IMG/VR virus record: IMGVR_UViG_2541047123_000042
Location: 1 to 35,222 of that record
DNA: 35,222 nt
Strand: one strand, 5' to 3'
Origin: a virus
Lineage: Duplodnaviria > Heunggongvirae > Uroviricota > Caudoviricetes
Part shown: positions 1 through 3,000 of the stretch, piece by piece
Numbering within the stretch: the stretch's first letter is position 1
How the letters are laid out: every line of letters begins with the position of its first letter
Position numbers: made by a program

Positions 1-3000
1 ATGTTAAAGATAATACCCGGTGCAACAGGATACTTTAATAAAACACTCAATTCAAATCAATTCGATAATGAAGATGCAATCAAAGGTAAAGTAAATAGTA
101 TATATGGTAAATCTATTGATTATTCAACGATGCGTCATCGGGATATAATTATTGCAAAAATAGATTTATTTATTCAAAGAATCACTCATAATTTATGGAC
201 TGCACGTGAAAAAAATGTGACGTTAATTAAGCAAATAAACGATCTCAAAATGTGTGTCAATGAGTATATTGGAGATTGTACTGATGAGGAATTAAACGAT
301 CGTGAATTTATTGCATCAGTTGTTGACAGGGCTATTTTTCATTTCGCGATTAATAGTATATGTAATCCCGAGGATAATAAAGATGCGACACTCATAGAAC
401 GATGTACTTTTGATGTAGAAACCAAGAATGGTCTTCCCTCCACGGTTCAGCTATTTTATGAGGAATCTAAAGATAATGAACCTTTAGCGAATATACATTT
501 GCAAGCAATAGGTTCTGGTTTCTTAACGTTTGTTAATGCCTGCCAGGAACATGATGACAACAGCTTAAAATTATTTGCTTCGCTGTTAATTTCCCTTTCA
601 TATTCTAGTGTCTACTCAGATTTTGCAGGAAGAGTGAATATTAATGAATATAATGATAACTACCTGAAAGCTCAGTTTGAAGAATTATCTCAACGTGATA
701 TGAAGAAGTACCTGGGAGAGATGAAGCGTCTGGCAGATGGGGGAGAAATGAATTTTGATGGCTATCTGGATAAGATGTCACATCTGGTGAATGAAGGAAC
801 GCTCGCCCCTGATATTTTAAGCAAAATGCGAGATGCTGCACCGAAATTAATTGACTTTGCTAAGTCGTTTGACCCAAACTCAAAGGAAAAGATTAAAATA
901 TATACAGGCACTTCTAAATTAATTTATGATTTATTCGGGGTTAAATCGGAGAAATAATATGTGAAGTTCTTCGATGGTATGAAAGGTATTACATAAAAGA
1001 ACCCAATGTTTATTGGGTTCTTTTTTTCTCTATCAGTGCTATTAGCAGGGAGAGATATCACCGGAGTTTAATGTGTGATTTTTATTTATCGTCGAATCTG
1101 TATTGTTTATCATTGCTTTTCACAACGCTAACATCTAATAAGATTAGATATTCACTTCGTGAGAGCTTCATGCCTTGAGAGGATCTCAATTTTCTTTTGC
1201 AATGAGACAGGCGCTTCCTGTTGTTATGGTATAGTACCCCGTTATTGAGCCTCCTGAACAGTGATGCTGAATAACATAACCACATGATATATCGATAAAA
1301 TAATCTCTACATTTGAAAATGCACGGTAATTCTGAAATGCAAAAAATCAACCAAACCAGCGCAATGCCTGAAAAAACTGACGTTCACTGGAGTGGTCGGT
1401 TTAGCGTTGCACCAATGCTCGATAGGATGTACCGTTTTTGAAAAACAAATAGTTATATACTTTGTGGGAGCCTATTGGGAACCCGGCGTTTTCATTTCAA
1501 GGTGTAATCCATACGCGGCTTAAGAATGAGATATAATGCGACTTTTAGTGTTCCGCTTGAGAGGCCATGATGCTTACCCTGGACGAGATAGGTCAATCAG
1601 TACGTAACAATATCCAGTTGATTATTGATCATGTCGGCTTACCTCTTGCTGTTGGTCCGCTCAGTGATGATGATTACAAGATTCTGTGTGGTGGCTATGG
1701 TGAGCTTGAATGGGACTATGCGTTAAGTACCTATGGCAACTCCAGAGAAAAGTATGAGTTCTGCATAAAACTTGTTCAGCAAGGTCGGGTTCAGGGAATA
1801 CCATCAGGAGCAGCAATTTGTGTTTATGGGGTTGAAGAAAACATCTTTCGTATCCATATGATCGAAAGGTTTTCTAGAGAAGATGAATCTCACCCATTGA
1901 AAGGGCGCATGGTTTTACTCACTCTTATGAGTGCTTTTATATTTTGTAAAGCTGTTGAATGTAAAGTTGTCCACATTGTAGAGCCAGTACCAGAACTGGT
2001 GCAGTATTACGAGTCTTTTGGTTTCCGCATGGAACAGTGCGGTTATGTGATGTCGGCAGTCATTGATGAGCTGCAGGATATCTTTCTTAAATTTGCTCAG
2101 TAGGTATAGACGAGAAGGGTCTACAAATTGTAGGATACCCGTCCAGATTACCTTAAAGGTACATCTATGGCAGTCGTTTTGTGCTTAAACTACTAAGAAA
2201 CGATGTCACCAATCGACATGATCGATTGGCATAAGTTAGCGAAACAAGCTAGCTTTAAAGAAAGGGTTAGAGACGCCTTTACTGTCTCGGGAGTTTTCTA
2301 TGAAAGATCAAAAAGCAACCAAGCCACAGGTTAAGTTCGACACAATGAAAGCATTCGCAGGTATGGGTGCTGCTGTTGAAGTTCTGATGAAGGCTGCTCC
2401 TAATGCGTTCACTCACGCTACTGTCTCTGGTAAAGAGCAGCAGGGTAAGCTTCGTCGTCGCAAAGCAGCATGATCATAGCTGGTGCTTTTTGAAAACCCG
2501 CCTTCAGGCGGGTTTTTTCTTTAGTGATGTTCTTTGTCCTTCTGTTTGACTGTTCTGACCTGTTCCCACTCGATACGTCCTTCTTCTCGCCTTTTGTCTA
2601 TGTATTCCGCAAGATCTTGAATATTGATGCAACGTTTTGCTTTTTGTGATGTGCCGATGCGATATGTTGGAACGGGCAACTTACAAGCGTTTGCTTTTGC
2701 TTCTGCCGTGGCTGGACTCATACCAAAGTACTTTTGGCTAACTGCTGAGAGTTCAATGTTTGGGGTATTGAATTCAGCCATCAGTAAAAACAAGGTGTTC
2801 ATAATTTTCTCCATCAAAACCGGCTGCACCCGGGAAAATCATAATTCTGTGCTGGTGGCAGGAATTAATTTCTGCCAGATAGCGGAAACATATTTTGCCT
2901 GATGACGGGCATCAGCCAGGGCGTTGTGCCGTTCGCCATCGAAAGGCATGTCCATTTTGGGGTCGAATCCGATGGAACGCCCAAGCGTAACGATCGTGCG

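Follow-up and report, generated by a model that had tools for sequence, protein, structure and literature searches.

The stretch of DNA analysed here, referred to as the window, comprises all 35,222 nucleotides of the IMG/VR virus record IMGVR_UViG_2541047123_000042, assigned to the Caudoviricetes. Near its left end two open reading frames (ORFs) of the plus strand are found, ORF178 at 1567-2103 (178 aa from the first ATG) and ORF57 at 2300-2473 (57 aa). Both lie where the original prediction had placed them, which regarded them as a loose pair of a GNAT-like gene and a small basic ORF. The segment 1484-2520 is best explained as a moron, an autonomous accessory cassette with two genes, which is carried by Enterobacterales temperate phages, tailocin-like loci and satellites. 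This cassette is present in ~6.6% of the complete E. coli genomes (357/5426), among them O157:H7 and O111 strains, as well as in Salmonella and many other Enterobacterales prophages, and both proteins are annotated as hypothetical. In the literature, nothing was found on the accessions, the PHROG identifiers or a prophage system composed of a GNAT and a small protein.

ORF178 (WP_000956557.1) encodes an acidic, divergent GNAT-fold protein. Here, the start at 1570 (1570-2103, 177 aa) is favoured over the alternative ATG at 1567 by RefSeq and by a ribosome-binding site, GAGAGG, five nucleotides before it. ORF57 (WP_000654815.1) encodes a small basic protein, and both ORFs are 100% identical to gp23 and gp24 of the lambdoid phage mEp460. 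ORF178 matches phrog_4350 (E = 2e-103), a family of unknown function. ORF57 had been called unrecognised, which is correct, as it matches phrog_2741 alone (E = 8e-36), likewise of unknown function, and has no match in Pfam. Homologues of both ORFs occur across the Enterobacterales and in Shewanella. The ORF178 family is small, because a profile search of 1.84 billion representative proteins yielded 94 relatives in total. The median pairwise ratio of nonsynonymous to synonymous substitutions (dN/dS) is 0.05 for ORF178 and 0.09 for ORF57, indicating purifying selection, and the annotated frame of ORF57 is the sole one of six that is open throughout 20 of 20 diverse loci. Both ORFs are real genes and not chance ORFs. 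A third candidate, ORF43 (2203-2334), which overlaps the leader of ORF57, is unconserved beyond close relatives, has no Pfam, NCBIfam, PHROG or PADLOC match and was treated as non-coding. In phage Eeyore (PP925821), a 53-aa homologue of ORF57 at 5798-5959 of locus L003 is unannotated, and GenBank gives short ORFs in other frames instead.

Each gene is preceded by its own predicted promoter. For ORF178, a -10 hexamer TATAAT with a weak -35 was read from the sequence at 1532-1537 (plus strand), and a TAnAAT-like hexamer lies ~30-40 nt before the ORF178 start in most of 21 diverse loci, in several of them just past an upstream terminator. Directly after the ORF178 stop codon a predicted internal promoter for ORF57 follows (2107-2136, plus strand), composed of the -35 element TAGACG (2107-2112), an 18-nt spacer and the -10 element TAGGAT (2131-2136). 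TAGACG is invariant and TAGGAT or TACGAT is kept in 14 of 14 aligned loci, with a variable spacer between them. This site scores 4/6 and 4/6 against the consensus, and both promoter calls are predictions that lie below the threshold of the consensus scan. The cassette is closed by an intrinsic terminator at 2492-2517 with an 11-bp stem and T/A runs on both sides, which also serves the convergent PrtN/xis gene, and similar hairpins stand 3' of ORF57 in most of the diverse loci. Since no terminator lies between the genes, both promoters should drive ORF57 and only the first of them ORF178. The codon usage agrees with an expression of ORF57 above that of ORF178, with an optimal-codon fraction of 0.68 versus 0.47 and a rare-codon fraction of 0.02 versus 0.16.

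The two genes are separated by 196 nt in the window, and the 5' leader of ORF57 (2143-2299, plus strand) is the most variable part of the cassette. It contains a hairpin CCAATCGA-N5-TCGATTGG at 2208-2228 and the inverted sequences GAGAC/GTCTC just before the ribosome-binding site GGGAG. The whole predicted transcript folds with z = -3.75. The leader hairpins themselves are not significantly more stable than shuffled sequences (mean z = -0.6) and have no covariation support, and an Rfam scan of 900-3500 gave nothing at the gathering score. A small RNA, sRNA-17, has been described as ArcA-regulated in E. coli K1 and located in an mEp460-like prophage (PMC7719688). It was considered as a possible content of the 196-nt spacer and rejected, as it maps ~5.6 kb from the cassette in mEp460 (12191-12220 of locus L002) and is absent from the window.

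The linkage of the two genes is strict. In 107 of 107 ORF178 loci, all retrieved through ORF178 and pooled from genomes, phages and IMG/VR contigs, a homologue of ORF57 lies 77-248 bp downstream on the same strand, and ORF178 without ORF57 was not seen in any of them. ORF57 homologues also follow ORF178 in phage Eeyore and after two remote relatives with 34% and 24% identity. Of the original prediction the pairing therefore stands, and its looseness has to be replaced by a tightly linked two-gene unit. This unit was found in at least eight different insertion contexts of phages, tailocins or satellites, several of them moron or defence hotspots. In mEp460 and sister prophages of E. coli and Salmonella it resides at the attP/xis end, and in Eeyore, Serratia and Edwardsiella it fills the slot between Q and the lysis genes. 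In Brenneria a cI-like repressor immediately precedes it, and in a P2-like E. tarda phage it is flanked by the gpA region and the portal gene. Photorhabdus has the unit inside a contractile-tail cluster, Pseudescherichia at the end of a tailocin-like element and Shewanella at a prophage end. In a further context it stands beside the integrase of an integrative element that encodes a D5_N primase and whose gene set recalls P4-type satellites. The wide spread of contexts together with the constant pairing is the signature of a mobile two-gene unit. As a side aspect, in Photorhabdus (1111-16537 of loci L014/L015) and Pseudescherichia (9798-16540 of L016/L017) the genes for tail sheath and tail tube come straight after a Q antiterminator, in Pseudescherichia after the antiterminator and lysis genes, and head genes are missing in between. 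Both elements look like R-type tailocin loci.

Since the cassette is carried by mobile elements only, one may think of a counter-defence factor or inter-phage weapon, in which the GNAT would acetylate an immune protein of the host or a protein of a competing phage with ORF57 as adaptor. Inactivation by acetylation is known from the anti-CRISPR AcrVA5, and in Serratia an Acb2/Tad1-like sponge gene is found ~1.6 kb downstream of the cassette, on the far side of the lysis cassette. However, the layout with own promoters and terminator and the sites occupied, beside a cI-like repressor or at att ends, point to a cassette that is expressed in the lysogen and not in early infection. Furthermore, the cassette is kept intact in a dead prophage remnant. 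This explanation appears very unlikely.

In the window, whose first part belongs to the E. coli zur-dusA region, the cassette lies at the left end of a prophage. A displaced 5' remnant of the host dusA gene with 35 codons is present at 1319-1423 (plus strand), annotated by RefSeq in O157:H7 as a pseudogene ('tRNA-dihydrouridine synthase, missing C-terminus'). It aligns with a phage-borne mimic of the dusA 5' end in mEp460, similar but non-identical, which is located next to the dusA-type integrase of that phage, with scattered mismatches upstream of the crossover. Complete identity to mEp460 begins at ~1414. Elements specific for dusA are known to replace the 5' end of this gene on integration (PMC4482086), which fits the switch of identity at ~1414, so that the att junction of the original prediction is the left attachment site (attL). 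The remnant and the mimic in mEp460 mark the prophage as a dusA-specific integrative element, whose integrase is absent from the window. The crossover and the phage att arm (1414-1483) are common to all sister prophages and form the left border of a swappable cargo slot. On the right, the cassette is neighboured by a PrtN-family gene (2521-2802, minus strand; PF11112, E = 4e-23; RefSeq and mEp460 annotation), the excisionase in the mEp460 annotation. It is the first gene of the convergent early-left operon and no member of the cassette. In mEp460 the same stretch lies between the dusA-type integrase with attP and the PrtN-family excisionase. A position as terminal cargo between att and early genes, as originally proposed, is thus confirmed.

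How this slot is used differs between related prophages. In enterotoxigenic E. coli (ETEC) H10407 and avian pathogenic E. coli (APEC) BEN5202, two overlapping genes take the place of 1484-2289 in the same prophage, one for a protein with a Panacea domain (PF13274, E = 2e-19) and one for a protein of 139 aa, and ORF57 follows 39 nt later. In BEN5202 the shared sequence stops at 1483/1484 (read by eye). In the sister dusA prophages, the Panacea pair lies at 1983-2971 of both locus L112 and locus L113. The pair looks like a PanA-type toxin-antitoxin (TA) arrangement; no PADLOC model matches it. Because such a pair sits there in sister phages, the segment 1484-2289 from the att arm to ORF57 can be considered a cargo-exchange slot of dusA prophages. 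Among 81 ORF57-bearing loci (79 IMG/VR contigs, H10407 and BEN5202), 59 contain the GNAT gene and 22 the Panacea pair, and every examined ORF57 locus without ORF178, including the phages SKA5 and Lys8385Vzw, has the Panacea pair in the slot. ORF57 as a third Panacea component was ruled out, since the two other phages examined, YeP1 of Yersinia and one of Klebsiella, have a complete Panacea pair and no ORF57-like gene. The Panacea system thus does not include ORF57, and what seems to have happened in this phage lineage is an exchange of the GNAT gene in which its partner ORF57 stayed behind.

This asymmetry is also visible in the complete E. coli genomes, of which 358 contain DNA of ORF178 and 562 DNA of ORF57; ORF57 without ORF178 is present in ~204. 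ORF178 was never seen alone and ORF57 tolerates its loss, as would be expected if ORF178 were harmful or dependent and ORF57 its antidote or cofactor. We tentatively read the cassette as toxin-antidote-like or as an abortive-infection or phage-defence cassette in which ORF57 restrains ORF178, a reading we hold at somewhat less than an even chance.

Regarding ORF178 itself, only a motif-level resemblance to GNATs had been claimed, which is true on the sequence level. Pfam and NCBIfam contain no family for it at E <= 1, so that the comparison with GNAT profiles, named originally as a check, did not identify it; PF00583 is touched by one of 70 representatives of the family (E = 0.006), the other 69 being without a Pfam GNAT match. 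When compared by profile with the canonical E. coli GNAT RimI, the alignment is confined to a 14-residue 'LVQYYESFGF' motif, which is the resemblance noticed originally. A close-family profile compared with the PDB by sequence gave spurious coiled-coil and armadillo matches alone. With a broader family profile the best GNAT match is nourseothricin acetyltransferase (E = 0.011), where E99 falls on beta4 and HPLxGR ('HPLkGR') lies over the cofactor loop 'RGHGVGR' of the enzyme.

The second check named at that time, a structure prediction, did reveal the fold. The AlphaFold2 model of ORF178 (pLDDT 89.9, pTM 0.88) has GNAT topology with the order beta1-alpha1-alpha2-beta2-beta3-beta4-alpha3-beta5-alpha4-beta6, as expected for the GNAT superfamily, and an additional N-terminal and C-terminal helix. 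Foldseek against the PDB returned 338 matches at E <= 1e-3, the best 50 of which are all GNATs, and the tRNA-acetylating toxins AtaT, KacT and TacT3 are among the best matches. In BFVD, no close viral structural relative was found apart from generic GNATs. Taken from the fold model, the structural matches and the weak profile links, ORF178 is thus a GNAT-fold outlier without a close subfamily. The fold assignment as such is not new, because the exact protein already carries the automatic label 'N-acetyltransferase' in UniRef.

W48, H96, E99, H108, P109, L110, G112, M114 and Y147 are invariant in an alignment of 31 sequences, although G112 is not invariant in an alignment of 16 pairs that includes phage Eeyore. 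H96 and E99 are placed on beta4, H108, P109, L110, G112 and M114 in the beta4-alpha3 loop, and Y147 on alpha4. The clustering of invariant residues at the cofactor and substrate sites of GNATs argues for a working active site. The pyrophosphate motif Q/R-x-x-G-x-G/A, however, is absent from the beta4-alpha3 junction, where ORF178 has the loop SREDESHPLKGRM and only the last glycine (G112) aligns. ORF178 would presumably use acyl-CoA. All 23 of 23 homologues checked are acidic, with an isoelectric point (pI) of 4.3-5.5 and a net charge of -4 to -18.

This acidity bears on a possible role in resistance by lysogenic conversion, as polycation-binding GNATs are typically acidic. Here, ORF178 would protect the lysogen by acetylating a small cationic molecule, either a polyamine or a toxin of the aminoglycoside, streptothricin or peptide type, with ORF57 as a regulator or an unconnected neighbour. 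On the sequence level, ORF178 is linked to solved GNATs only through the nourseothricin acetyltransferase mentioned above and a weak match to AAC(6'), which point in this direction, and SpeG and the streptothricin-type OrfE are found among the structural neighbours. Furthermore, Photorhabdus and Xenorhabdus, both prolific makers of cationic natural products, are among the carriers of the cassette. Such a role would nevertheless leave the invariable small partner and the separate promoter unexplained, and no NCBIfam resistance-gene model names ORF178. Resistance is therefore regarded as a quite improbable function.

In contrast to ORF178, the partner protein is strongly basic. ORF57 has a pI of 10.5, and all homologues are basic with a pI of 9.4-10.8, so that charge complementarity is conserved between the two proteins. 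In the low-confidence model of ORF57 (pLDDT 60), residues 15-32 form the only helix and the protein is mostly disordered elsewhere, as would be expected for a protein that folds on its partner. A conserved core FDT..AF..MGAAVEVLMKAAP is followed by a basic tail, which ends in ...RRRKAA. Within the family, Ala-Ala forms the C-terminus in 49 of 61 distinct proteins, and the last 12 residues contain an average of 4.4 Lys or Arg.

The same features would suit an enzyme-substrate pair, in which ORF178 acetylates a lysine or the N-terminus of ORF57 and the modified ORF57 is the effector, for example modulating a host or phage process in the lysogen. The strict co-occurrence, the conserved combination of an acidic enzyme with a basic partner, the lysine-rich ORF57 that is disordered outside one helix, and its apparently high expression, as for an effector, are all in line with this. 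On the other hand, the ~204 E. coli genomes with ORF57 and without ORF178 imply that unmodified ORF57 must be functional or at least tolerated, the ORF57 family as a whole has no invariant lysine, and we know of nothing on such small effectors that could be applied here. An enzyme-substrate relation is considered rather unlikely.

The two genes further differ in their synonymous sites, which in the same 14 loci are several-fold more conserved in ORF57 than in ORF178. Among the codon columns of invariant residues, 63 of 64 vary synonymously in ORF178 and 16 of 35 in ORF57, and within codons 1-35 of ORF57 it is 9 of 24 (contrast with ORF178, Fisher p = 6e-10). On the nucleotide level, the identity is 0.89-0.96 at 2312-2401, 0.5-0.78 within ORF178 and 0.19-0.69 in the leader. 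RNA structure was rejected as the cause, as RNAalifold gave no covarying structure, and so was an overlapping or antisense gene, as no alternative frame is open across the loci. This conservation could stem from translational selection, with ORF57 being highly expressed, or from a recombination history of its own, and the best lead is a codon usage typical of highly expressed E. coli genes.

Such a sharp difference in synonymous divergence could also mean that the two genes are merely adjacent morons without a functional link, or that the GNAT fold of ORF178 serves as a binding scaffold without catalysis. The non-canonical cofactor loop, the 69 of 70 family representatives without a Pfam GNAT match and the ability of ORF57 to stand without ORF178 would fit. 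Against this, His, Glu and Tyr are invariant at the usual catalytic positions, purifying selection is strong, and chance would hardly produce a linkage that is seen in 107 of 107 loci, in eight or more contexts and still at 24% identity. We give an inactive or unlinked pair only a slim chance.

If the toxin-antidote-like reading is followed, the mechanism may be pictured as follows. ORF178 would be an acyl-CoA-dependent acyltransferase, whose activity is harmful or needs restraint. ORF57 would be made in excess, bind ORF178 via charge complementarity and keep it in check, and would at the same time be turned over quickly through its degron-like C-terminal tail. Once the synthesis of ORF57 stops, for example by the takeover of an infecting phage, ORF178 would be released and acylate a cationic target, so that growth or phage development stops. 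This would correspond to the logic of toxin-antidote or abortive-infection systems expressed from the lysogen. In the window, the promoter of host dusA would read into the cassette from the displaced remnant, and the cassette may receive extra transcription in this way.

For the assumption of toxin-like or defence cargo, already part of the original prediction, the support is circumstantial: the Panacea TA pair in the slot, the moron and defence hotspots, and the occurrence of ORF57 without ORF178 but never of the reverse. Several points weigh against it. No model for a TA or defence system matches, as PADLOC-DB 2.0.0 has no family at E <= 1 for ORF178, ORF57 or ORF43. That ORF178 is never alone would be equally true if ORF57 were an obligatory cofactor or substrate. 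The cofactor loop is non-canonical, with Pro and Leu at the usual place of Q/RxxG, and with such an acetyl-CoA pyrophosphate loop ORF178 might not bind acyl-CoA at all; since the backbone amides do the binding, the cofactor may nevertheless be bound. ClpX recognition motifs include the LAA of ssrA and the RRKKAI of MuA, which the tail of ORF57 resembles, and the putative degron is a lead based on this resemblance. Furthermore, the GNAT is acidic, and its partner lies downstream behind a leader of 77-248 nt and has no recognisable DNA-binding fold. Known GNAT toxins pair with an upstream DUF1778 ribbon-helix-helix (RHH) antitoxin (PMC9177977).

A more far-reaching version would be a new class of GNAT toxin-antidote or abortive-infection systems, composed of an acidic non-canonical GNAT and a basic, disordered mini-antidote of 50-60 aa downstream, which has its own strong promoter and a protease-labile Ala-Ala end. 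As a moron of lambdoid and P2-like phages, tailocins and integrative elements, it would shield lysogens such as enterohaemorrhagic E. coli (EHEC) O157 and Salmonella from superinfection. This version is doubtful. Should the cassette act in defence or as a toxin-antidote module, prophage-encoded immunity would gain a GNAT effector whose partner is of a new type. Should ORF178 be an ordinary acetyltransferase and its small partner a substrate or regulator, the cassette would be routine accessory cargo.

The remaining window shows that the prophage around the cassette is rearranged. To the left, a DUF2713 gene (1-957) with a very low G+C content of 0.34 matches phrog_29005 and phrog_28007, and this gene beside the prophage is possibly foreign as well. 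Matches of the window to mEp460 are confined to 1316-3191, 4203-5384 and a 705-bp stretch of tail genes (6469-7173). Since the similarity to mEp460 ends at 3191, the Rv2179c-like 3'-5' exonuclease gene (2839-3191) is truncated, and profile positions 79-177 alone remain. In O157:H7 PV15-279, the remnant of this gene is directly followed by an ISEc8 element. A breakpoint lies at 5353-5438 (context 4203-6092), where the mEp460-like early-left region meets the C-terminal part of a tail-tip J gene (5439-6092). The DUF2303 gene (4966-5352, minus strand) is truncated there and abuts the J gene part at ~5385-5438. In O157:H7, that J gene resides ~3.5 Mb away in an effector prophage with nleA, nleH, nleF, nleG and espM1; in O157:H7 genomes the segment 5431-25000 of the window is found at ~1.72 Mb in the nleA effector prophage and the dusA end at ~5.17 Mb. 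None of the complete E. coli genomes contains 80% or more of positions 1-25000 in one place, and the breakpoint is either an inter-prophage rearrangement or the sign of a chimeric window. Within the type III effector cargo region, a 441-aa ORF (9426-10751, minus strand) corresponds to nleA of O157:H7, and nleH1-2, nleF, nleG and espM1 are annotated in the matching O157 stretch. An ISEc8 element of the IS66 family with ORFs of 512, 115 and 133 aa follows at ~15090-17423 (minus strand). The cassette is intact and its proteins are 100% identical to the mEp460 copy; it therefore survived within a rearranged and truncated prophage remnant.

Compared with known systems, the GNAT/DUF1778 TA modules TacAT, AtaRT, KacAT and ItaRT are similar in being mobile two-gene modules of a ~175-aa GNAT and a small protein, and in that the presumed toxin is never found without its partner. 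TacT3, AtaT and KacT belong to the best structural matches of ORF178, and Y147 lies on alpha4, where GNAT toxins have their catalytic tyrosine. GNAT toxins are basic tRNA binders, in contrast to the acidic ORF178 (pI 4.3-5.5), and there is no sequence similarity. ORF57 is located downstream, behind the leader of 77-248 nt and its own promoter-like site, and with 57 aa and one helix it has no DUF1778 or RHH domain. Because the partner is downstream and without an RHH domain and the GNAT is acidic, the cassette is not a member of the GNAT/DUF1778 systems.

With the acetyltransferases NatD/Naa40, RimI/RimJ, SpeG and nourseothricin acetyltransferase, ORF178 shares the YxxxGF motif on alpha4, and these also comprise acidic enzymes with cationic substrates. 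The identity to ORF178 is only 8-16%, however, and ORF178 has a longer beta4-alpha3 loop with HPLxG(R/K)M instead of Q/RxxGxG/A, an extra N-terminal helix, and a C-terminal helix that replaces the usual last strand.

The Panacea (PanA) TA pairs consist of unrelated proteins and form a complete two-gene module without ORF57 in other phages, yet in the sister dusA prophages they occupy exactly the slot 1484-2289 upstream of the same ORF57 gene. Phage morons such as bor, lom and rexAB of lambda or those of the old/tin hotspot of P2 differ from the cassette, which has two genes and an internal second promoter, and the term moron refers to the architecture and not to a function. In this architecture the cassette resembles them, being a self-contained unit with its own predicted promoters and terminator, which is inserted between unrelated modules at different places in different phages.

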